Origin: a virus
Taxonomy: Duplodnaviria; Caudoviricetes
IMG/VR virus record: IMGVR_UViG_3300013901_000008
Span: 42,522 to 106,521 of that record
Length of the DNA stretch: 64,000 bases
Strand: one strand, 5' to 3'
The position numbers and the translations under genes are program-made. The notes beneath the pieces are model-generated. The model had not been told where the DNA came from. It worked only from the letters and a program-made list of their open reading frames with translations, and searched no databases. Below are positions 204-42,571 of the stretch, in pieces. Position 1 is the first letter of the stretch; each line of letters opens with the position of its first letter.

Positions 204-887
204 ATGCAAACTATCATTCCTTATGTCACAAGGTTCCTGGCAGCCATCATCGGCATCATCTGGTGCTACATCGAACCTTCCATCAATTACATCGCCGTAT
301 GCGCCTTCGCTCTCCTCCTGGATTGCTATACAGCCTGGCGATTGAACCGACGCATCTACAGCCGCTATCGAGAAGCCATTAAGAAAGACCCTCGATGTAA
401 GATAGACGGCAAGCTGAAATCGAAGAAGATGGCAAAGATGGTGCAAGATTTCTCGGTGCTCATCATGGCGATATTCCTTGCCACGCTCGTAGATACCGTG
501 ATACTCGACTACATGAATCCTCTTCACCTCGCCAACTATCTCGCCGCCATCTATTGCAGCGTCCAGTTTATCAGTGTTCTCGAAAACGAGAGTACCTGCA
601 ATGGTGCAGCCTGGGCAAAAGTGATGCAGAAGATTGTGGCTGATAAGACGGAACGACATTTCAATGTCAAGATGAAAGACTTGATAGAAGAGGAAGAGGA
701 AATCAAAGGCAAAGACCCCTACGGGCATAAAAGCAATTCCGAGATAGAGGAGGACGAAAGAAGCAATGTTTCTTCTGGCAGGAAATCCCCATCGCCCGAC
801 AACGATTCTGCACCATCAGGAGAAGAGTCTGCATCAAATGAAGATGAAGATGATGCAGATAAATCGGAAGATACCAACTACCCTTAA
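204..887 (+). CDS. Phage holin-like membrane protein with acidic C-terminal tail
   Basis: Several hydrophobic segments; D-x-x-T-A-W and S-V-L-E-N motifs typical of the holin_4/TcdE-like family. Confidence 0.7.
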   Translation: MQTIIPYVTRFLAAIIGIIWCYIEPSINYIAVCAFALLLDCYTAWRLNRRIYSRYREAIKKDPRCKIDGKLKSKKMAKMVQDFSVLIMAIFLATLVDTVILDYMNPLHLANYLAAIYCSVQFISVLENESTCNGAAWAKVMQKIVADKTERHFNVKMKDLIEEEEEIKGKDPYGHKSNSEIEEDERSNVSSGRKSPSPDNDSAPSGEESASNEDEDDADKSEDTNYP

Positions 888-15083: not shown

Positions 15084-15175
15084 CCCACAGAAAAAGCGAA
15101 ACATTCTTAGGTAAAAAGAATTGTTTTCAAGGATAACAGCAAACATACATTAATATTAAACTTTTGATTCTCCAC

Positions 15176-16855
15176 ATGAAAGGACTTTTAGAAATCCTTA
15201 CCGAAAAGAAGTGGATGGTATCGCCAACCTTTGTGCATGGCATCAAGAAAGCCTTGGAGCAGAACCTGAATACCCATGCGGTATTCGAGAAGCCCGAAAG
15301 GACTTGTGGTTTCGTCAAGGAGACACTTCCTGATGGTGCGATGATTTATCCGGAGGAATATCAGATTTCCGAGGATGGCAAGCTGGTACGTGGCAACTGG
15401 GCTTTGGATGAGGACGACCTTCAGACGTTCCCATTCGTGAGCGTGCTCACCGTGGATGGTCCTATCACTCGCAATGGCGGTGGTTGCTCGTATGGCAGCA
15501 TCGACCATCGAGACATGATGATCCGTGCGGCCAATCATCCGCTCTGTCGAGGTCACATCTTTATCATCAATACGCCTGGTGGTTCGGCTTGGGCTAAGAA
15601 CGATTATCAGCAAGCCATCGAGTATGCCCGTTCCTTGGGTCAGCCAGTTATCGCCTTCGTAGATGGCATGTGTGCCAGCGCAGGTATGTACCTCGCTTCT
15701 CTTTGCGACGAGCGATACTACATGCACCCGAAAGACGAAATCGGTTGCATCGGTGTGATGGCAGCATTCTACACCCAGGCAGATGGTAGCAAAAACCAGT
15801 TTACGGATGAGACCTACCACGAGTTGTACGACCCTGAGAGTTTCGACAAGAACCGTGAGTTCCGTGATATAGCCAACGATGGCAACACCAAGGCACTCGT
15901 AAAAGAACTTGCCGAGTTGGGCGTGGAATTTAGAGCCGACGTTAAAGCGGCTTGCCCTAACGCCAAGGATGAGCATCTACACGGAAAGATATTCGATGCA
16001 GAAAAGGTAAAGGGTATCTTGATGGACGACCAGAGTGATTTCTTCTCTTGCGTACATCGTTGCTTCGACATCTACGATGGTAAGGCAGAACCTATCAGCC
16101 GTGAGGCTCCCGATGAGCCGGAAGACGAGCCAAGTAGCGACCCAGCCGAAGACCCTAACAAGGCTTCTTCTCGAAAACAGGATAACAACAATTCTAAACT
16201 CAATATCAATATGGCAAACTATCCACTTATCAGTGCTGCCTTGTGTCTGAAAGATGGTGATTTGGCAGTTAAGGAGGATGGCGCATTTATGAATGCCCCT
16301 CTTCTCGATACGCTCGAAGCACATCTTAACACAACCAAGCAGCAGGTAGTCGATGCACAGCAGAAGGCTACCCAGGCAGAGCAGAGTCTTGCCGACTTGC
16401 AGGCTAAACTCGATGCAGCCAACGCGCAGATAGCAGAAGCTAAGAATGCACAGACGGTGGCTGAAAAAGCACTCGCCGATGCAAACCAGGCTCACGCTAA
16501 GGCAATCGAAAATCTCAACACCGAGCATTCTGATGCCCTCGCCAAAAAAGACGAGACTATCGCCAAGAAGGACGAGGAAATCAAAAATCTTACTTCCGAC
16601 AAGGCTAAGGCTGACGAGGAGTTGAAGGGTGCAAAGGATGCACTCGCCACCGCCGAGCAGACCATCGCCGACAAGGATGCACAGATCAAGGCTCTCGGCG
16701 AGGATGCAGGTGAGGCACCTGATGCAGGTGCGGCTCCTGAGAACAATGGCGAGGGTGCAAAGGTTCAGACTCTCCGTGAGTTCGACCCATCTCCTTACAA
16801 GACCAACAAGGAACGTAAGGAAGCATTCGAGCGTTACAAGCGTGGTGAGGAGTAA
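15176..16855 (+). CDS. S49/ClpP-type prohead protease fused to coiled-coil scaffold
   Basis: INTPGGS, DGMCASAGMYLASLCD and EIGCIGV S49 motifs; C-terminal Ala/Lys/Glu coiled coil; start moved to ATG 15176. Confidence 0.88.
   Translation: MKGLLEILTEKKWMVSPTFVHGIKKALEQNLNTHAVFEKPERTCGFVKETLPDGAMIYPEEYQISEDGKLVRGNWALDEDDLQTFPFVSVLTVDGPITRNGGGCSYGSIDHRDMMIRAANHPLCRGHIFIINTPGGSAWAKNDYQQAIEYARSLGQPVIAFVDGMCASAGMYLASLCDERYYMHPKDEIGCIGVMAAFYTQADGSKNQFTDETYHELYDPESFDKNREFRDIANDGNTKALVKELAELGVEFRADVKAACPNAKDEHLHGKIFDAEKVKGILMDDQSDFFSCVHRCFDIYDGKAEPISREAPDEPEDEPSSDPAEDPNKASSRKQDNNNSKLNINMANYPLISAALCLKDGDLAVKEDGAFMNAPLLDTLEAHLNTTKQQVVDAQQKATQAEQSLADLQAKLDAANAQIAEAKNAQTVAEKALADANQAHAKAIENLNTEHSDALAKKDETIAKKDEEIKNLTSDKAKADEELKGAKDALATAEQTIADKDAQIKALGEDAGEAPDAGAAPENNGEGAKVQTLREFDPSPYKTNKERKEAFERYKRGEE
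16211..16855 (+). CDS. Putative nested in-frame scaffolding protein (MANYPLISAAL...)
   Basis: In-frame ATG after an AT-rich leader-like stretch that contains AGGATAAC (16179-16186); analogous to lambda C/Nu3. Confidence 0.55.
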   Translation: MANYPLISAALCLKDGDLAVKEDGAFMNAPLLDTLEAHLNTTKQQVVDAQQKATQAEQSLADLQAKLDAANAQIAEAKNAQTVAEKALADANQAHAKAIENLNTEHSDALAKKDETIAKKDEEIKNLTSDKAKADEELKGAKDALATAEQTIADKDAQIKALGEDAGEAPDAGAAPENNGEGAKVQTLREFDPSPYKTNKERKEAFERYKRGEE

Positions 16856-24327: not shown

Positions 24328-25131
24328 ATGAAGACATTTTTCAAAGAGCTGGGCATATCATTAGTGCCCGTTATTCTCGCACTATTGGCAGCAATCGCCA
24401 TGCGGTTGATAATGGATTCTGCATTCAGAGTCTTGCATCCGTCAATATTCTCTAATGAAGTGTATGAGTGCTGCGTATCGGCTATGTGGTATGTAGTATT
24501 GAGTAGCATCGTCGTATGCTGGGTATTTATCCCTTTGATGGCTTGGCGCAAGCGAAAGATTATTGCCTGGCGTTTGGCTGACCTCGAAAAGGAAGACGGC
24601 GGCAACCATTCATCTGGGGATGAAAAGGATAATAACGGTTCATCGGACACCACAGACAAGGAAACGGTAAACGTTCAGATTTGCCCAATGAGACAAAAGT
24701 GGTACCGTACTATTCGCTTTATCTTTTGCGCCAATATTAAGGATATGACGTTCGGTAGCGTGCAGATGGATATACCTACGGAAGATGAAAAAGAGTTTGA
24801 GCCGTTTTGGAGAGATTGCGATGCTTTCATCTATGCCCTGTGTGTAGATAATGTAGCAAGAAAACATGGTGTCGGCGGCTCGCTATTGTTCGCCGTAGAG
24901 AACCAGGCTAAAATAGAGGGTTGCAAGACGGTAGCCCTGCGTTGGGATGATAGGGAGAGTGAGCCTTGGGTGTTAGATTGGTATAAGCGCAAGGGATATA
25001 AGGAAACAAAGATAGAAGGCGACGGACACAGCCATTTCCTTGTAAAGCAACTCGGCAAGAGCGAGACTGGCGGACCATCGAATGATGATGAGGAGCCATC
25101 TGGTAGCGATAACAATGCAGCCGATGAGTAG
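24328..25131 (+). CDS. Membrane-anchored GNAT acetyltransferase
   Basis: Two N-terminal TM helices; IYALCVDNVARKHGVGGSLL (motif A) and WYKRKGY (motif B). Confidence 0.8.
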   Translation: MKTFFKELGISLVPVILALLAAIAMRLIMDSAFRVLHPSIFSNEVYECCVSAMWYVVLSSIVVCWVFIPLMAWRKRKIIAWRLADLEKEDGGNHSSGDEKDNNGSSDTTDKETVNVQICPMRQKWYRTIRFIFCANIKDMTFGSVQMDIPTEDEKEFEPFWRDCDAFIYALCVDNVARKHGVGGSLLFAVENQAKIEGCKTVALRWDDRESEPWVLDWYKRKGYKETKIEGDGHSHFLVKQLGKSETGGPSNDDEEPSGSDNNAADE

Positions 25132-27355: not shown

Positions 27356-27497
27356 GGATATAAACTATGATGTTTTATCGAAAATTTATCCTATCATTAG
27401 CATTTTTAATACAAGCGCAAATGTTTTACGAAATATTTTATTTACTTTTGCAGTCATATAAATTTGATTTATCATTTAGACTAAAAAGTAAGAGAGT

Positions 27498-28403
27498 ATG
27501 GAACTAAGACATTTGCGCTCGTTTGTTTATGTGGCAGATACGCTTTCGTTTAGCGTAGCTGCATCCTATTGTTGTGTCACCCAATCGGCAGTTAGCCAAC
27601 ATATCAAGGCTTTGGAAGATGAGTTAGGTTGCAAATTATTGATACGTACCTCGCATGACATCATGCTAACCGAAAGCGGAGAGGCTTTGCTACCTCGCGC
27701 CAAGGAGATACTGAAGCAGACGGAAGACTGCAAGGAACATATTCATGCCATCAACAACTGCATCACAGGCGAATTGCGTATTGGGGTTGGTTCTTTTATC
27801 GCTCCTTATATACGTGTAGCTGCACTTACTTTCATGGAGCGATACCCTAACGTCCTTATCAATGCGGATTTCAATAAGGCACATATTCTGAACCGTTCGC
27901 TTCGATCACATAACATCGACCTTGCGTTCACGATGAATACTGCCTACAAGCATGAGGGCATTGAGTCTAAGCCATGCATCCCTTTTCATATCTATACTAT
28001 CATGCGTAATACTCATCCTTTGGCCAACAAGGATAAATTAGCATACGAAGACCTTTTGAAACATCCTGTTGTCATGCCAGATGTCGGAGAGCGAGAGTTT
28101 GAGACTTGCCAACGCTATATCCAGCGAGACCTCACCAAACTAAATGCAAGATGTATCGTAAGTGACCCTGATGAAGCCCTTGCAGCCGTAGAGGAAACGC
28201 ATTGGATAACCTTTGCGCCTAAGCTATATCTAAAGAACCACCCTACCCTCGTAGCTCGACCTATCATAAGCCTTGAGCAAGGTTTTGTGAGTAACGTACA
28301 TTATATGCAAGATGTTCCGATGAAACGTTCTGCGCAACTTTTCCTTGACATTATCAAGGAAGAAGCAATACCTTATATCGCCGCTTTGGAAGAGACGATG
28401 TAA
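27498..28403 (+). CDS. LysR-family transcriptional regulator (8 Cys)
   Basis: MELRHLRSF...SFSVAA...VTQSAVSQHIKALEDELG.KLL.R...LTESG HTH; GELRIG substrate domain; own TACTTTTG promoter at 27443-27450. Confidence 0.95.
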   Translation: MELRHLRSFVYVADTLSFSVAASYCCVTQSAVSQHIKALEDELGCKLLIRTSHDIMLTESGEALLPRAKEILKQTEDCKEHIHAINNCITGELRIGVGSFIAPYIRVAALTFMERYPNVLINADFNKAHILNRSLRSHNIDLAFTMNTAYKHEGIESKPCIPFHIYTIMRNTHPLANKDKLAYEDLLKHPVVMPDVGEREFETCQRYIQRDLTKLNARCIVSDPDEALAAVEETHWITFAPKLYLKNHPTLVARPIISLEQGFVSNVHYMQDVPMKRSAQLFLDIIKEEAIPYIAALEETM

Positions 28404-28446
28404 GATGAGTTATCAATTTTGATAATTATATAAGATGAGTTATCAA
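28401..28446. promoter_or_regulatory. Candidate LysR operator: direct repeat TAAGATGAGTTATCAA x2 with overlapping palindrome TTATCAA-TT-TTGATAA
   Basis: Repeats at 28401-28416 and 28431-28446; palindrome 28410-28425; -7 box TACCTTTG at 28538-28545. Confidence 0.55.
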
Positions 28447-28586
28447 AAATTATAATCATAAGATAAGCGTTTCTTCCTTATAATTTTGTTGCAACGACAT
28501 TTAATGGAAACCACATTTCTGTTTACCTGTTTCGCTTTACCTTTGCATACGATTCCGATATTGGAAGAATTTAATACAATGAAGTT

Positions 28587-29105
28587 ATGCAGGTAAAAAC
28601 GAATGATGGTAACTACGATGTTGCCAGCAAGGGATTGGGCAACACAGCCCTTGGCCTCGGTATCGCTGGTTTGGCTACTAGTTTGCTGGGCGGCGGTGCC
28701 TCGCTTTTTAATCTTGGGCGAGGAAACAATGGTATGACTGCCAACCCTACCGACCCTGATGCTCGTTTCGTCACTAAGAGCGAGACGAACCTTATTCAGG
28801 AAAACTCTACTCTCAAGACAGAGCTTGCTATCCAGAAGAGCGAGAACTACACCGATAAGAAATTGGTGGAGGTTACTCAGTATTTGGATGGCAAGGTACG
28901 TCAGCTTGAGAACAAAGTGGATGCCAACAAGGATGCACAGCAAGCCGTAAATGCACAGCAGATGGCATACAATGCCGCTGCCAATGCCAACATCGACGTG
29001 CTTAAATCGCAGGTGGCAGCACTCACCAGTGTTACCAAGTTGATGATTCCGTCGGGCAATGTTTGCCAGACGGGTTGCGGATGTGGATGTGCTTGTAATC
29101 AGTAA
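28587..29105 (+). CDS. Gly-zipper + coiled-coil + Cys-rich tail protein
   Basis: GLGNTALGLGIAGLATSLLGGG hydrophobic helix, long coiled coil, C-terminal CQTGCGCGCAC. Confidence 0.8.
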   Translation: MQVKTNDGNYDVASKGLGNTALGLGIAGLATSLLGGGASLFNLGRGNNGMTANPTDPDARFVTKSETNLIQENSTLKTELAIQKSENYTDKKLVEVTQYLDGKVRQLENKVDANKDAQQAVNAQQMAYNAAANANIDVLKSQVAALTSVTKLMIPSGNVCQTGCGCGCACNQ

Positions 29106-29117
29106 AGCTTAGGCGAT

Positions 29118-29540
29118 ATGGAATACAAGAACTCCCAAATTTTGGCAGCGGTCGTGTCCGAATGGGCACGCCCTGCCATTTCTCAGATAGCCGCTGGCAA
29201 TCTGATGCGCCTTCCTATGTTGCAATCTCTGCAAGCTACCATCGGTGGCATGGGGCTTGTGAGTGGAAGCTATTCCCTACAAGCAGATATGGAACCTATG
29301 ATTCAACCTGTAGTGAATGCACTCGTTACCCCGATGCTTACCAAGTATTTTGGTAACATTCCAGAAGAGAGTATTCCGCAGATGGCTCATGATGTAGTGA
29401 ACAGTCTTCGCTACAAGGGTCCACTGTCGGTATTGGAGGGGTTGGTTACTTTCGAGGAAGAAGATCTCGATGAACTCGCAGACCTTCTTCAGAAGAATCT
29501 ACCAGTAGAGAGTAATCAGGGCTATCAAGTAAAACATTAA
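29118..29540 (+). CDS. Hypothetical helical protein of the LysR-linked operon
   Basis: 140 aa ORF tightly packed in the operon. Confidence 0.75.
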   Translation: MEYKNSQILAAVVSEWARPAISQIAAGNLMRLPMLQSLQATIGGMGLVSGSYSLQADMEPMIQPVVNALVTPMLTKYFGNIPEESIPQMAHDVVNSLRYKGPLSVLEGLVTFEEEDLDELADLLQKNLPVESNQGYQVKH

Positions 29541-29572
29541 TATCGAAAAGCTTTTCGGCGACTTAAACAGAA

Positions 29573-30007
29573 ATGATTATGAACAAAAGAACGTTTCCGG
29601 CTAATATCATAGCCACGCTTGCAGTAGGCTCTTCCACCACTGCACCTTATTACGACATCAATATCACACAACAGCTTTGCGTTCCGGCATGTGCGGACGA
29701 GACTCCTGTCTTTGCGCCTAAGTTTACCATCAAAAGTATTGCCAATGTTGGAACCTCGCAATACCTTGTTGTGTTGCATGTAGAGGGAGTTATCAGTTAT
29801 GTACCTTGCGGCTGTGGCTCTTGTTGCACTCGCTCGCAGGTGGTGAGCCAGGACTTTACGATACCAGTCTTTAGCGCAACCGCTATTAGCGGCATCACTG
29901 CATCGGTGGGTAGCATACAGAATGGTATCGCAAAAGTGTCTTGCCAGTCATGCAGTAAGACCTTTGTGTGCGATGCGCCTCTCACGCTCACGATTGCCAC
30001 GGCGTAA
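29573..30007 (+). CDS. Cys-rich beta-sandwich protein (SPOCS/DUF3794-like pattern)
   Basis: 9 Cys; VVLHVEGVISYVPCGCGSCC...QDFTIPV resembles the SPOCS strand pattern (by eye). Confidence 0.6.
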   Translation: MIMNKRTFPANIIATLAVGSSTTAPYYDINITQQLCVPACADETPVFAPKFTIKSIANVGTSQYLVVLHVEGVISYVPCGCGSCCTRSQVVSQDFTIPVFSATAISGITASVGSIQNGIAKVSCQSCSKTFVCDAPLTLTIATA

Positions 30008-30025
30008 CGTAAAGTTCCCCTTGCG

Positions 30026-30376
30026 ATGATGATGTATCTGTTTGTAGCCATCGCTATGATGATGGCGGCTACCCTTATTCAACACCTTGGTTTGGCAGAA
30101 GCGATAACCGAGATATTGGTTAAGGTGTTAAGCAAGGTTGCAAGTTGTAATCAATGTTTTACGTTTTGGTTGTCGCTTGCAGCTTTGCTTTGCGAGGGTT
30201 GTACTATAGTCTGGGCTATCGCTCTTGCAATCCTCATGGCTTATTTGTCTAATTGGTTTGTCTTGTTGTTGATGATCCTTCAAAGGTTGTTCTCCAAGAT
30301 ATATAATCGGGAAAAAGAATATGAGCAAGAAAGAAAATACGAACGAAAGAAAGTTGAAAGAAAGAAAGCAGGATGA
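30026..30376 (+). CDS. Membrane protein with CxxCxxFW motif (DUF1360-like)
   Basis: About three hydrophobic helices; SCNQCFTFW and LCEGC. Confidence 0.65.
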   Translation: MMMYLFVAIAMMMAATLIQHLGLAEAITEILVKVLSKVASCNQCFTFWLSLAALLCEGCTIVWAIALAILMAYLSNWFVLLLMILQRLFSKIYNREKEYEQERKYERKKVERKKAG

Positions 30377-30461
30377 AGTTTCTTTCTTTCAGCCTTTGGG
30401 TAAGTATCAAACATTGATACCTGTCATTCCTCATTTCAAGGGCATCTGCCCGAATTGTTGA
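30321..30461 (+). CDS. Small protein (46 aa) ending in CPNC, not in the ORF track
   Basis: MSKKENTNERKLKERKQDEVSFFQPLGKYQTLIPVIPHFKGICPNC*; fills the gap between operon genes. Confidence 0.55.
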   Translation: MSKKENTNERKLKERKQDEVSFFQPLGKYQTLIPVIPHFKGICPNC

Positions 30462-30491
30462 ACTTTTGTGATATAAAATGTAGAAGAAAAC

Positions 30492-30992
30492 ATGAGATAT
30501 ATTCAGTTGATAGAACAGGCTCGCTTGCATGGCGTTACTTCAGAAAAGAAAATGTGGGCAGCCATCGAACAAATGTCTTGCGACTTGATGGTTCTTGAGA
30601 ACGACCATTCAGAGTTGTATTGGCAAATATTAAGAAATCAGCACGCCATTCTTTACGACCGCCATTACAGCGAGAAGTTTGCTAACCATGATGTAAATCG
30701 CCTTGTACATAGCAAACTCAATGGCAAGGGAGAGTCTGTAGGTATGGGTGCGCATTGGACGAAATCGGAGATAGTGGATGCTACCAAGGGAATGCAATTC
30801 CACGAAAAAGTGAACGATTGGGATAAGTATGTAGCATTTAATGCTATGTATGCAGACCTTTGCGCCGATATGACCGATGAAGAGATTATCAAGGCGGCTT
30901 ATCTTTTCTATTTTCATGATGCAGACTGGCAACCATCGGAGGATGATTGCACCAAGGTTTGGGATTACATGAGTAGTCATGCCAAGATGTAA
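30492..30992 (+). CDS. Conserved gut-phage hypothetical protein (GAHWT...WDKYVAFNAMYAD...D.D...KVWDY)
   Basis: 166 aa ORF, last gene of the operon. Confidence 0.75.
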   Translation: MRYIQLIEQARLHGVTSEKKMWAAIEQMSCDLMVLENDHSELYWQILRNQHAILYDRHYSEKFANHDVNRLVHSKLNGKGESVGMGAHWTKSEIVDATKGMQFHEKVNDWDKYVAFNAMYADLCADMTDEEIIKAAYLFYFHDADWQPSEDDCTKVWDYMSSHAKM

Positions 30993-31044
30993 GGTAAGGA
31001 AAGTGTTCAGGATAACTTGTAATTTTAAGATTGATGTTTATATT

Positions 31045-31083
31045 GAAGCCTCTTTGCGCCTATGGTAGCCGCAAAGGGGCTTC
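31045..31083 (+). terminator. Hairpin closing the LysR-linked operon
   Basis: GAAGCCTCTTTGCG / CGCAAAGGGGCTTC stem. Confidence 0.6.
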
Positions 31084-31089
31084 CACTGT

Positions 31090-31126
31090 TTTGTCCCCAC
31101 TAAAAAAATCCTTTTTTCTATCTTTG
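31090..31126 (+). promoter_or_regulatory. Putative late-type promoter for the lysin/portal/tail operon
   Basis: TTTGTCCC 31090-31097, N21, TATCTTTG 31119-31126. Confidence 0.75.
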
Positions 31127-31153
31127 CATCATCAATACAAAAAATATAAGATT

Positions 31154-31708
31154 ATGGCAAAAATAGAACCAATCGCAAAATTCATTCTCTCCTTTGAGGG
31201 AGGTTTCGTCAACGACCCGAAAGACAAGGGTGGTGCGACCAATAAAGGCGTAACCATCGCCACCTGGCGTATGCAAGGCTATGACAAGGATGGCGACGGC
31301 GACATCGACGTGGATGATTTGAAGCTCATCACCGATGCCGATGCCACCGAAGTTATGCGCCGCTGTTATTGGAAGCGATGGCGTGCGGACGAAATCAAGA
31401 ACCAGAGTATTGCCAACCTACTTGTGGATTGGATTTGGTGCAGCGGAACGCCATCTATCACCATCACCCAGTCGATGCTTGGGCTGAAAGCAGATGGCAT
31501 CCCTGGTAAGCAGACGATTGCGGCTATCAATCGGCAGAACCCTAAGACGTTCTTCAATCGCTTGAAGGCTCGCCGTAAGCAATTCTATGAGGGCATTGTA
31601 AAGAACAATCCTTCGCAAAAAAGATTCATCAATGGTTGGTTGCGAAGACTCGAAGCTATCAAGTATGGCTCGCTTGTTACCAATAGAGGCACTATCATAA
31701 AGTGCTAA
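31154..31708 (+). CDS. Endolysin, glycoside hydrolase family 108 with PG-binding domain
   Basis: FEGGFVNDPKDKGGATNKGVT catalytic motif; C-terminal RFINGWLRRL; start moved to ATG 31154. Confidence 0.92.
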   Translation: MAKIEPIAKFILSFEGGFVNDPKDKGGATNKGVTIATWRMQGYDKDGDGDIDVDDLKLITDADATEVMRRCYWKRWRADEIKNQSIANLLVDWIWCSGTPSITITQSMLGLKADGIPGKQTIAAINRQNPKTFFNRLKARRKQFYEGIVKNNPSQKRFINGWLRRLEAIKYGSLVTNRGTIIKC

Positions 31709-35092: not shown

Positions 35093-36343
35093 ATGATACT
35101 CTTCACAAATCAAGAACTTCGGCTTCACCTCCCCAGCAACGCTGTGGACGAGGTGGCTAACTTGCAGGGTATGCTCGATAATAGTGAAAAAGATTTCTTG
35201 AAGCCTCGCTTGGGTGAATCGCTCTACAATCGCTTGTGCGAATATTACAGAGGCATAGAGCCATCTGATTTTTGCGACGCTGTTATCAACGGCGATTATG
35301 ACAAAAACCCATGGAACGAGGTCTTACTGTATGCCCAGCGCATGATCGTAAACGATGCGATGGCGAAAAACATCGAAAAGCAACTTCTTTCGATGAATGG
35401 CACTGGCATCAATGTGGCTTCGAGTAACGACTATTCTGTGGCAACCGATAAGCAGATAGCCCAGGGCAAGGAAAGTTATCGCGAGACTGCGATGATTTCT
35501 CTCAATAACTTGCTATCTCTCTTGGAGGGATGGGCAAAGAAAATCAATACCCCAATGGAGATTGATACCTTATCGGGCGATAACACATCTTTAAGTGATA
35601 GCGCATCTGGTGATACAGAAACATCTGATAGCGCAGGTTCTTCCGATAACGCTGGCTCTTCGGATAACACTGGCTCATCTGATGATACAGGTTCTTCCGA
35701 TAACACTGGTTCTTCTGATGAAACCGAGGCGGATAAACTGCAAGCCATCGGCGAGATAGTCTTACTGTGGGAAGAAAGCAAGTACTATTATTATCATTCA
35801 GACTTGCTCTTCCCTACCTGCGAGAGCTTGCAGCCGTACCTCGATATTTACGACAATCGAGACAAGTTTGTTCGCTTGATTCCCGATATGCGATTCATCC
35901 AGAGCGAATATCTGGAAGAGGCATTTGGCGAAGACTTCATCCCTCGCCTTCTGCAAGCAAGCGAAGACGATAAGCTTCTGAAGAAAGCCCGTCAACTCAT
36001 AGCCGCATATCTCAAAGAAAGAACGTCGGTTATCAATTTCGATAAGCTGGCTCGTTCTACTGCCCACAATGATGCCATTACCGTAAGGGAAAGCATTCAT
36101 CGCTTACTAAAGAAAGAGGAAGTCGAGAAGCAAGCTGCACTCGATGCAGCCAACGGCGGAAGCGATGGTACCAACACTGGAAACAACTCTGGAGCAAGCG
36201 GCTCTTCCGCATCGACGAGTAACTCCTCCTGTAGTTCATCGTCGGCTTCATCGCCTGGTTCATCATCGGGCGATAATGGCAACGAGGGCTATCAGAACAA
36301 CCAAGCTGGCTCCCGAATATTCGTAACCCCTATCCTGTGCTGA
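35093..36343 (+). CDS. Putative head-tail connector (DUF6712-like) with Ser/Gly/Asp insertions
   Basis: Follows the portal; FLKPRLGESLY and duplicated helical halves; SSDNTG-type repeats at about 35620-35720. Confidence 0.6.
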   Translation: MILFTNQELRLHLPSNAVDEVANLQGMLDNSEKDFLKPRLGESLYNRLCEYYRGIEPSDFCDAVINGDYDKNPWNEVLLYAQRMIVNDAMAKNIEKQLLSMNGTGINVASSNDYSVATDKQIAQGKESYRETAMISLNNLLSLLEGWAKKINTPMEIDTLSGDNTSLSDSASGDTETSDSAGSSDNAGSSDNTGSSDDTGSSDNTGSSDETEADKLQAIGEIVLLWEESKYYYYHSDLLFPTCESLQPYLDIYDNRDKFVRLIPDMRFIQSEYLEEAFGEDFIPRLLQASEDDKLLKKARQLIAAYLKERTSVINFDKLARSTAHNDAITVRESIHRLLKKEEVEKQAALDAANGGSDGTNTGNNSGASGSSASTSNSSCSSSSASSPGSSSGDNGNEGYQNNQAGSRIFVTPILC

Positions 36344-41347: not shown

Positions 41348-42571
41348 ATGAACAAAGAAAATATTTACATCACTGGCTTGGGCATCCACTCTTGCCTGGG
41401 CAGTGATATTCCGTCATTCGCCAAAGCCTTGCACGATGGCAAGTGCGGCTTACATCATGATAGCGAGCGAAAGGCAAAGGGCTATCAATCGGATTTGTGC
41501 GGTGCGGTACCATCAGTGCCTGAAGACTTGATAACGAGTCTCACAAGAGCGCAATATCAATGTTTCTCCCGACCTACGTTTTATGCACTTAGCGCAGTAA
41601 AGCAAGCCTTGCACCAAGCTTGCATATCGGATGATTTCTTATCCGAGCACCATGTATCGCTCATCGTAAGCAACGACTCTACGGCTGGCGAGATGATGCG
41701 CACGGGCACTACTATGCAGCAAAAGAATGATACTCGTTATTTGGGCGCAGGCGCAGTTTTTCGCTCTCTTAATTCTACGGTCAGTATGAACCTTGCATCC
41801 TTGCTTGGCATACATGGCTTGTCGCTTACCGTGAGTGCGGCTTGCGCTGGCGGCGGCCATGCCTTGGGCTTAGGTAAGATGCTTCTTGATACCAAGCAAA
41901 CGGAAATGGTGATAGTAGTAGGAGCACAAGAGGATGGCGTGGCTTCCATGCAGTCTTTTGACGCGCTGGGTGTCTTTACCGATACCAAGGTGCAGCCTTT
42001 CGGGAAAGGACGCACAGGTCTTGCTCCTTCGGGTGGCGCAGCTTGTGTGATATTGGAACCGGAACACAACTTTCATCTACGAGCAAAGAAACTCCAACCA
42101 TGGGCGATATTATCGGGCTATGGCTTCTCATCGAATGGCACAGCTATCAGTACTCCCCTCGCCTACCAAGAATCCGTTTCCATGATTAAGGCGATGGATG
42201 ATGCTGGTATCGACGAAGGTTTGATAGATGTGATTCTCGCCCATGCTACTGGCACTACCATGGGTGATGAAGCAGAAGCGACTGCCATTGGCGATACTTT
42301 CGGTATGTGTCCAAAAGTGGTTGCCACAAAAGGTATGACCGGACACGAGTGCTGGATGGCTGGCGTATCGCAAGCCGTGCAAGCCGCCCTCATATTGAAT
42401 AAAGCATCCCTTCCTGGGTGCGTTGGCACCGAAAAAAATGCTTTCCCTAAGCTAAACCTCGTGATGAAGACAATGAATTATCAACCGCACAACATTCTCT
42501 GCAATGCCTTTGGCTTCGGCGGTACCAATTCATCTTTCATTATCTCCAAATTCGATAACAATAAATTATAA
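41348..42571 (+). CDS. Beta-ketoacyl-ACP synthase (FabB/FabF superfamily)
   Basis: ITGLGIHSCLG; catalytic Cys in SAACAGG; His in AHATGT; second His in TKGMTGHECWMAG; NAFGFGGTN. Confidence 0.95.
   Translation: MNKENIYITGLGIHSCLGSDIPSFAKALHDGKCGLHHDSERKAKGYQSDLCGAVPSVPEDLITSLTRAQYQCFSRPTFYALSAVKQALHQACISDDFLSEHHVSLIVSNDSTAGEMMRTGTTMQQKNDTRYLGAGAVFRSLNSTVSMNLASLLGIHGLSLTVSAACAGGGHALGLGKMLLDTKQTEMVIVVGAQEDGVASMQSFDALGVFTDTKVQPFGKGRTGLAPSGGAACVILEPEHNFHLRAKKLQPWAILSGYGFSSNGTAISTPLAYQESVSMIKAMDDAGIDEGLIDVILAHATGTTMGDEAEATAIGDTFGMCPKVVATKGMTGHECWMAGVSQAVQAALILNKASLPGCVGTEKNAFPKLNLVMKTMNYQPHNILCNAFGFGGTNSSFIISKFDNNKL

Follow-up and report, generated by a model that had tools for sequence, protein, structure and literature searches.

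A LysR-linked accessory module next to the endolysin gene of a Bacteroidales phage, one form of a widespread DUF7841 gene set

The DNA analysed here (the window) is 64,000 nucleotides (nt) long and forms the last part of a complete viral genome of 106,521 bp (IMG/VR record IMGVR_UViG_3300013901_000008, positions 42,522 to 106,521). At 27443-31083 it carries a cassette made up of a gene for a LysR-type regulator and six tightly packed open reading frames (ORFs), referred to as p172, p140, p144, p116, p46 and p166. The cassette is a real, autonomous, regulator-linked transcription unit, and, by our reading of the sequences, is one lineage's LysR-linked form of a module that is widespread in Bacteroidales phages and recurrently adjoins lysis genes. 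We tentatively propose that it is a separately regulated accessory module that acts at the cell envelope and tunes lysis, a reading that we consider possible rather than probable.

A self-contained transcription unit with its own regulator

The regulator gene (27498-28403, + strand) encodes 301 amino acids (aa), including 8 Cys, with matches to HTH_1 (PF00126, 2.7e-20, residues 3-62) and LysR_substrate (PF03466, 8.4e-26, residues 90-289) of Pfam and to phrog_3736 of PHROGs (4.3e-48), and we class it as a full-length LysR-type transcriptional regulator (LTTR). It falls into none of the named equivalogs (CidR, OxyR, CysB and others), as all NCBIfam matches lie far under their cut-offs, the best with 122 versus 250 bits. 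Its putative promoter is marked by a Bacteroidetes-type -7 box, TACTTTTG (27443-27450, + strand), found 48 nt 5' of the ATG in a scan for TAnnTTTG.

The candidate LysR operator consists of two 30-nt direct repeats (28398-28457, + strand) containing a perfect 7-2-7 palindrome, TTATCAA-TT-TTGATAA, at 28410-28425, and lies 80-140 nt upstream of the cassette's own -7 box. No symmetric T-N11-A was found there by script. The palindrome is retained in L064, which carries the closest LysR relative (contigs and loci are cited by L numbers), and other repeats are present instead where LysR is 76-78% identical. LysR may act on these repeats and the palindrome.

The -7 box of the cassette, TACCTTTG (28538-28545, + strand), is likewise of the Bacteroidetes type; it lies 49 nt 5' of the p172 ATG and has no TGTCCC box, the element that accompanies the probable late promoters of this phage (see below). 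A TAnnTTTG box stands 47-53 nt 5' of the first gene in all module versions examined, LysR-less relatives included. The leader 3' of the box contains the palindrome TTCCGATATTGGAA (28553-28566, + strand). Most versions have a short leader palindrome, either this one or GTTCAATAATGAAC, which might serve as an operator or form a hairpin in the RNA. The cassette closes with a terminator-like stem-loop (31045-31083, + strand; -25.3 kcal/mol, z = -4.8) that none of 200 shuffled sequences equals in stability, and that lacks the U-run demanded by the terminator scan. An earlier note on this DNA had listed the LysR gene, the repeats and palindrome, a promoter without the late box, six ORFs and a hairpin, and had read them as a self-contained cassette; all of these features are present at the coordinates given above, and the reading as a separate unit holds.

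Almost all genes of the genome lie on the + strand, and no Shine-Dalgarno sequence is found upstream of them. The host is a non-sporulating member of the Bacteroidales, since the metagenome bins that contain close relatives are labelled Prevotella or Bacteroidales; this agrees with the non-sporulating host assumed earlier. A search of the complete genome for tyrosine and serine recombinases yielded none, so that a classical lysogen state is unlikely, and the suggestion that the cassette protects a lysogen loses its footing. A plasmid-like state has been reported for crAssphage (PMC10983915), and is possible for the phage of the window as well.

Conservation and loss among close relatives

Close relatives were defined as the 67 IMG/VR contigs that encode a relative of p144, most of which are 50-110 kb long. 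Conservation of the unit in these contigs means that it is not a chance arrangement, and shows that the genes do co-occur as a unit elsewhere. LysR adjoins the cassette in 65 of the 67, mostly upstream and in L052 and L053 downstream. The two contigs without LysR (L066 and L067) also lack p140, and in both the N-terminal part of p172 is fused in frame to the C-terminal part of p144, giving a protein of 184 aa that represents 109 member sequences. LysR and the cassette decay together, given that both LysR-less contigs have a broken cassette.

The genes for p116 and p46 are jointly present in 13 of the 67 contigs and jointly absent from the other 54. Together with the fusion and deletion variants, this identifies the cassette as accessory and dispensable in nature. 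The first gene of the cassette is strongly conserved: p172 is 83-97% identical in most related contigs of about 100 kb, which makes it the most conserved gene of the locus (compare 70-89% for the portal-like protein and 72-90% for LysR).

The wider DUF7841 module

The link to other phages is the universal last gene of the module, represented in the window by p166 (30492-30992, + strand; 166 aa). It belongs to DUF7841 (Pfam PF25223; alignment A3), with 27.3 bits against a gathering cut-off of 25.2 in Pfam and 26.7 bits in the genome search, and its distant relatives score up to 59.8 bits. At 50% identity the family falls into 546 clusters, whose proteins are all small and stand alone; the one apparent domain fusion, to an integrase, is probably a gene-call artefact. 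The DUF7841 module is found in at least 468 viral contigs, and has a recurrent order: an anchored coiled-coil protein with a P-x3-V-C ... C-x-C tip, one to three small acidic proteins, and the DUF7841 protein. Only some branches (L073, L078 and L127) have p144 and the p116/p46 pair, and LysR is missing from all distant versions. Co-occurrence with LysR is thus a property of the close group (65 of 67), whereas the core module is widespread without LysR.

In eight distant versions, a small conserved protein with a DnaA-domain-IV-like pattern, i.e. a helix-turn-helix (HTH), stands directly upstream of the module. With a length of 57-144 aa, it takes this position in many of the smaller Bacteroidales phages (L096:4939-5235, L076:6143-6469, L077:5771-6154, L127:4502-4801 and L083:3009-3305). 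It has no Pfam match; the record of Bacteroides phage BF1-TP2 annotates it as DnaA domain IV. L065 has LysR, then an extracytoplasmic function (ECF) sigma factor (Sigma70_r2 and r4_2, L065:4473-5003), then the module, which suggests a regulatory cascade. LysR is one of several interchangeable regulators of the module.

Among named phages, BF1-TP2 (gp40-gp36) and members of the Crassvirales carry the module; in the prototype crAssphage it comprises gp61-gp58, and a small transmembrane (TM) protein, gp57, lies nearby. PHROG scans of the BF1-TP2 and crAssphage versions returned nothing. Homology over the whole range of the module is solid for DUF7841, and for the other genes rests on architecture and position, since p172 aligns with the crAssphage gp61 sub-family over its N-terminal 37 residues only and p140 shows no significant likeness to gp59-type proteins (hhalign gives a probability of 1.2%). 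Two further crAssphage genes lie 3' of the module, namely gp57 (L085:6401-6730), the small multi-TM protein, and gp56 (L085:6939-7280), an HExxH protein of 113 aa that contains a hydrophobic segment; both may be lysis-related. In the literature searched we found no published description of the module, of which only the DUF7841 domain has been catalogued.

Recurrent adjacency to lysis genes

For a census of lineages, the DUF7841 proteins of 166 loci were clustered at 70% identity, giving 26 lineages, and an endolysin was sought within 6 kb of the module. A recognisable endolysin is present within this distance in 17 of the 26, and belongs to any of seven unrelated types (GH108, two amidases, GH24, BF1 gp47-type, Peptidase_M15_3 and DUF5675). 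Of the nine lineages in which none was recognised, several consist of short or truncated contigs or of crAss-like genomes. The module usually follows, in this order, a holin, an endolysin, a u-spanin-like lipoprotein and a small HTH protein (L075, L076, L089 and L096), while the group of the window and L065 have the endolysin 3' of the module; in L065 it is of a different type (an amidase), and still adjacent. Adjacency of the module to lysis genes is therefore recurrent. As a separate observation, L135 (3359-3808) and L079 (2125-2643) encode, in place of the u-spanin-like gene, a signal-peptide protein with a beta-barrel-like aromatic end (...SYRIW or ...SWRLW).

In the genome of the window, the lysis genes are dispersed, with the holin 30 kb and the u-spanin-like gene 58 kb from the endolysin, and the module adjoins the endolysin although the other two are far off. 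The neighbouring unit (31092-31708, + strand) consists of a promoter, TGTCCCC ... TATCTTTG (31092-31126), and a GH108/PG_binding_3 endolysin gene (31154-31708). A DNA-level search of cultured phages gave a weak match of 125 nt in the endolysin gene as its sole result. The holin, of the Phage_holin_4_1 family (window 204-887), and the u-spanin-like lipoprotein, with its lipobox and a TM segment at the C-terminal end (genome 13930-14556, beyond the window), each have a late promoter of their own.

These promoters share the composite motif TGTCCC-N27-TAnnTTTGCA, which was found in the TAnnTTTG scan in seven copies genome-wide with fixed spacing (window 85, 15049, 31092, 44127 and 59691; genome 13865 and 30587). 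Each copy lies directly 5' of a late-type gene or operon, including the u-spanin-like lipoprotein, the holin, a block from protease to presumed tail genes (window 15164 onward) and a block from endolysin to portal, among others. The motif probably defines the late promoter class of the phage.

Properties of the cassette proteins

p172 (28587-29105, + strand; 172 aa) has a short N-terminus, a hydrophobic anchor of the Gly-zipper kind, a coiled coil and a C-terminal Cys tip. Its tail reads CQTGCGCGCACNQ, and the tip pattern that it shares with its relatives is P-x3-V-C ... C-x-C (alignment A4). It is predicted to be a bitopic inner-membrane protein with the Cys tip in the periplasm. A search of the ESM Atlas placed it in unnamed viral clusters only. 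Two spanin assignments were considered and rejected. The architecture fits a two-component i-spanin, but there is no lipobox ORF in or beside p172, and separate u-spanin-like lipoproteins are encoded; an embedded o-spanin is not credible either, as the alternative-frame ORF at 28603-28737 lacks a proper lipobox and mirrors the Gly codons.

p140, p144 and p166 are predicted to be cytoplasmic, because they have neither a signal peptide nor a TM segment. p140 (29118-29540, + strand; 140 aa) is acidic and Cys-free, and has no family or PDB match in Pfam, PHROGs or a PDB profile search. p144 (29573-30007, + strand; 144 aa, 9 Cys) has conserved Cys clusters of the forms CxxxC, CxCxxC and CxxC (alignment A1). 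Its AlphaFold2 model is an all-beta sandwich (predicted local distance difference test, pLDDT, 88.6) with no Foldseek match at E <= 0.001 in PDB or BFVD; a profile search against PDB sequences was empty, and the best hit of the VIA wide search (Z 5.7) is a generic HSP20/CS-like sandwich under the stated noise level of the tool. The earlier likening of p144 to SPOCS (CotE/SipL) domains is not upheld, SPOCS not being listed for it in Pfam at E <= 0.1; the comparison of folds would not by itself decide the matter.

The model of p166 is mostly helical (pLDDT 91.9), and the family has a set of invariant residues: H58, W89, DKYVAFN (111-117), F141, D143, D145 and K155. Foldseek matches had E > 2, the best VIA Z is 4.2, and the ESM Atlas had no usable match. 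Many low VIA rows pointed to CE-clan peptidases, a lead that was dropped because the family has no conserved Cys.

p116 (30026-30376, + strand; 116 aa) is an optional membrane protein with three TM segments predicted from hydropathy, a basic tail and the invariant motifs H-x-G-L and C-x-x-C-x-x-F-W. DUF1360, which it had been thought to resemble, is not listed for it in Pfam at E <= 0.1; its sole row is Phage_Gp23 at 0.0032, under the cut-off of that family. A role as a class I holin was rejected, p116 having no holin family match in Pfam or PHROGs, being absent from 54 of the 67 relatives and not lying behind a late promoter; the genome also has its Phage_holin_4_1 gene at another site. p46 (30321-30461, + strand; 46 aa) is a basic micro-protein ending in P-x-F-x-G-x-C-x-x-C (CPNC in the window). 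Its gene always overlaps the 3' end of the p116 gene and always co-occurs with it, and its C-terminal P, F, C and C are invariant across lineages that are 25-54% identical; on these grounds p46 is a real gene, and the unannotated ORF pointed out by the earlier note proves to be a conserved one. The conserved Cys clusters may bind metal or pair p46 with p116. A likeness of the Cys-rich tails to Ena/DUF3992-type appendage subunits, or to precursors of ribosomally synthesised and post-translationally modified peptides, was discarded, as there is no family match and there are no genes for modifying enzymes.

Searches of Pfam, PHROGs, NCBIfam and PADLOC with all cassette proteins and the endolysin recognised only LysR, DUF7841 and the endolysin, and PDB-sequence profile searches gave nothing significant. 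In particular, none of the seven proteins matched a PADLOC defence model at E <= 0.01. The view that the system has no described function is borne out to the extent that no structural gene of the cassette matches a characterised family in these four databases.

A possible role in tuning lysis, and the alternatives

We tentatively read the cassette as a non-essential, separately transcribed module that would be functionally part of the lysis region and act at the cell envelope. p172 would be built like i-spanins and T4 holin T, with a cytoplasmic N-terminus and a periplasmic coiled coil and Cys tip; p140, p144 and p166 would be its cytoplasmic partners, and p116 and p46 an optional small membrane pair. 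With the core lysis machinery encoded elsewhere in the genome, the module would tune the timing or the completeness of envelope breach, rather than bring about lysis itself, much like the dispensable r genes of T4. In the Prevotella phage lineage of about 100 kb, its promoter would have been placed under a ligand-sensing LysR, and in other lineages a small DnaA-domain-IV-like HTH protein, or LysR with an ECF sigma factor, would be the regulator.

We infer this topology, the control by LysR and the lysis-related role from several features. The module recurrently adjoins lysis genes in a stereotyped order and with unrelated endolysin types, keeps its place beside the endolysin in the window's genome and in L065, and is dispensable. 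In all lineages examined it possesses a promoter of its own together with a dedicated regulator; p172 combines an N-terminal anchor, strongly hydrophobic in its relatives, with a coiled coil and a conserved tip; and the optional p116 couples three TM segments to a charged tail. Moreover, the module is present in phages without an integrase, among them crAss-like phages and the genome of the window, and so it cannot be a function of lysogeny only.

A number of observations weigh against a part in lysis. Module proteins match no lysis-protein family in Pfam, PHROGs or NCBIfam, and since the carriers come equipped with holin, endolysin and u-spanin-like genes, no lysis step is left for the module to supply. 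L052/L053 and L060-L062 have no endolysin within 6 kb. The hydrophobic segment of p172 in the window is under the usual TM threshold, although p172-like proteins in L096 and L089 have a clear hydrophobic TM segment at the equivalent position, and p172-like proteins of separate sub-families share only their N-terminal ~37 residues (BLASTP). Every lysis gene of the window's genome stands behind a late TGTCCC promoter and the cassette does not; the timing of its expression may thus differ. Finally, morons classically occupy the slot after a lysis cassette or the end of a prophage, and the linkage of module and lysis genes could be positional only.

This last point leads to the alternative that fares best, an unlikely but serious one: a moron-type accessory system, expressed outside the late programme, that alters the envelope, for example for superinfection exclusion or protection against rival phages. 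A promoter without the late box, a regulator of its own, dispensability and a membrane-located p172 as the most conserved gene of the locus all suit such a system, as does the location of the module in smaller phages at the end of the contig or prophage, where it adjoins integrase or host genes (L075 and L077). It also sometimes adjoins tail-fibre-sized genes (L074, L077 and crAssphage gp62-64). However, no PADLOC defence model matches, four to six genes are many relative to known exclusion systems, and in crAss-like phages the module sits inside the structural or late gene block. The constant order behind holin, endolysin and spanin, maintained over seven endolysin types, is also more specific than expected for a generic cargo slot.

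It is highly unlikely that the genes serve morphogenesis or encode virion-associated proteins, for instance tail accessory or ejection proteins, with the hydrophobic segment and coiled coil of p172 penetrating the target membrane. crAssphage gp61 is annotated as a "putative tail protein" and lies between tail genes, but the label is a bare annotation; the module likewise follows tail-fibre-sized genes in L074 and L077, and a Gly-rich hydrophobic peptide with a coiled coil recalls fusion and ejection proteins in general. Against this, a common natural variant has lost the module, the promoter is its own and not of the late class, there is no match to a structural PHROG family, and a protein with three TM segments such as p116 is implausible in a virion.

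The assembly envisaged by the earlier note, i.e. a signal-induced, membrane-anchored, spore-coat-like structure or internal compartment, cross-linked by disulfides or metal and protecting lysogen or virions from oxygen or metals, is scarcely credible: it would accommodate the ligand-type regulator and the conserved Cys clusters of p172, p144, p116 and p46, but no test that was run supports a shell or compartment, there is neither a SPOCS or DUF1360 match nor any structural likeness to coat or appendage proteins, the genome has no integrase, the Cys-rich p144, p116 and p46 are optional parts absent from the crAssphage, BF1-TP2 and L077 versions, and p144 and p46, having no signal peptide, are expected in the reducing cytoplasm, where Cys clusters would more often bind metal than form cross-links. 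The remaining probability belongs to a function of some other kind.

Other genes of the window

Outside the cassette and the lysis genes, the window encodes a protein with an N-terminal TM segment and a GNAT-like C-terminal domain (24328-25131), a 563-aa protein with a Peptidase_S49-like segment just under the Pfam cut-off (15164-16855; 23.7 versus 24.9 bits) and, downstream of the portal-like gene, a DUF6712 protein (35093-36343).

Significance

Phages of Bacteroidales dominate the human gut virome, and their lysis and lysis control are poorly understood. In the prototype crAssphage, persistence goes along with little visible lysis, and strict control of the lytic switch has been proposed (PMC10983915). 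The module is a concrete candidate for the missing layer of lysis control, being conserved, dispensable, equipped with its own regulator and promoter, located beside lysis genes and present in crAssphage. Two of its proteins, p144 and p166, have confidently modelled folds without a known relative. The LysR-bearing version provides a handle for finding the signal, and Bacteroides phage BF1-TP2, as a cultured carrier, makes the question testable. In its boldest form, which we think quite unlikely, the proposal would be that a previously unrecognised mobile, separately regulated system, common to crAssphage and hundreds of Bacteroidales phages, governs envelope breach or the lysis decision, and is wired here to LysR so that a non-integrating, possibly plasmid-like phage times lysis by a host or gut metabolite. 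If the module is merely positional cargo, it nevertheless counts among the more widely distributed gene sets of gut phages that await characterisation.

Comparison with known systems

The regulator resembles LTTRs such as CidR, which controls the holin-like cidABC operon, in having HTH_1 and LysR_substrate domains and a length of about 300 aa, in standing directly upstream of a promoter with a palindrome and direct repeats, and in having as neighbours membrane proteins implicated in lysis. CidR is among its better NCBIfam matches (5.4e-28), yet the score of 98 bits is far from the cut-off of 415. It differs from typical LTTRs in being phage-encoded (phrog_3736), in being co-directional with its presumed target rather than divergent, and in the form of the palindrome, 7-2-7 instead of a symmetric T-N11-A.

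T4 holin T with the antiholins RI and RIII, and the spanin pair Rz/Rz1, are among the closest known parallels. Shared features are a bitopic membrane protein with a large periplasmic coiled coil and Cys (predicted for p172), small cytoplasmic partners, dispensability and a location near the endolysin. Unlike these lysis accessory genes, with which there is no sequence or profile similarity, the module is not behind a late promoter, holin and u-spanin-like genes are already found in its carriers, and no gene for a lipoprotein partner of the Rz1 kind is embedded in or beside p172.

DUF7841 (PF25223), for which p166 passes the curated cut-off, is a family without a described function, and our literature search found no paper that mentions it. 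The nearest relatives among known phages are the modules of crAssphage (Carjivirus communis) and BF1-TP2. These differ from the cassette in lacking LysR, p144, a p116-type protein and p46, and in having an extra Q-rich protein of 171 aa; p172 aligns with the gp61 sub-family over its N-terminal 37 residues only (8e-06, BLASTP). However, they have the same order of an anchored coiled-coil protein with a C-x-C tip, small proteins and a DUF7841 protein, with a small multi-TM protein nearby, and gp61 of crAssphage is 40% identical over its full length to the first gene of the L077 version (2e-55).

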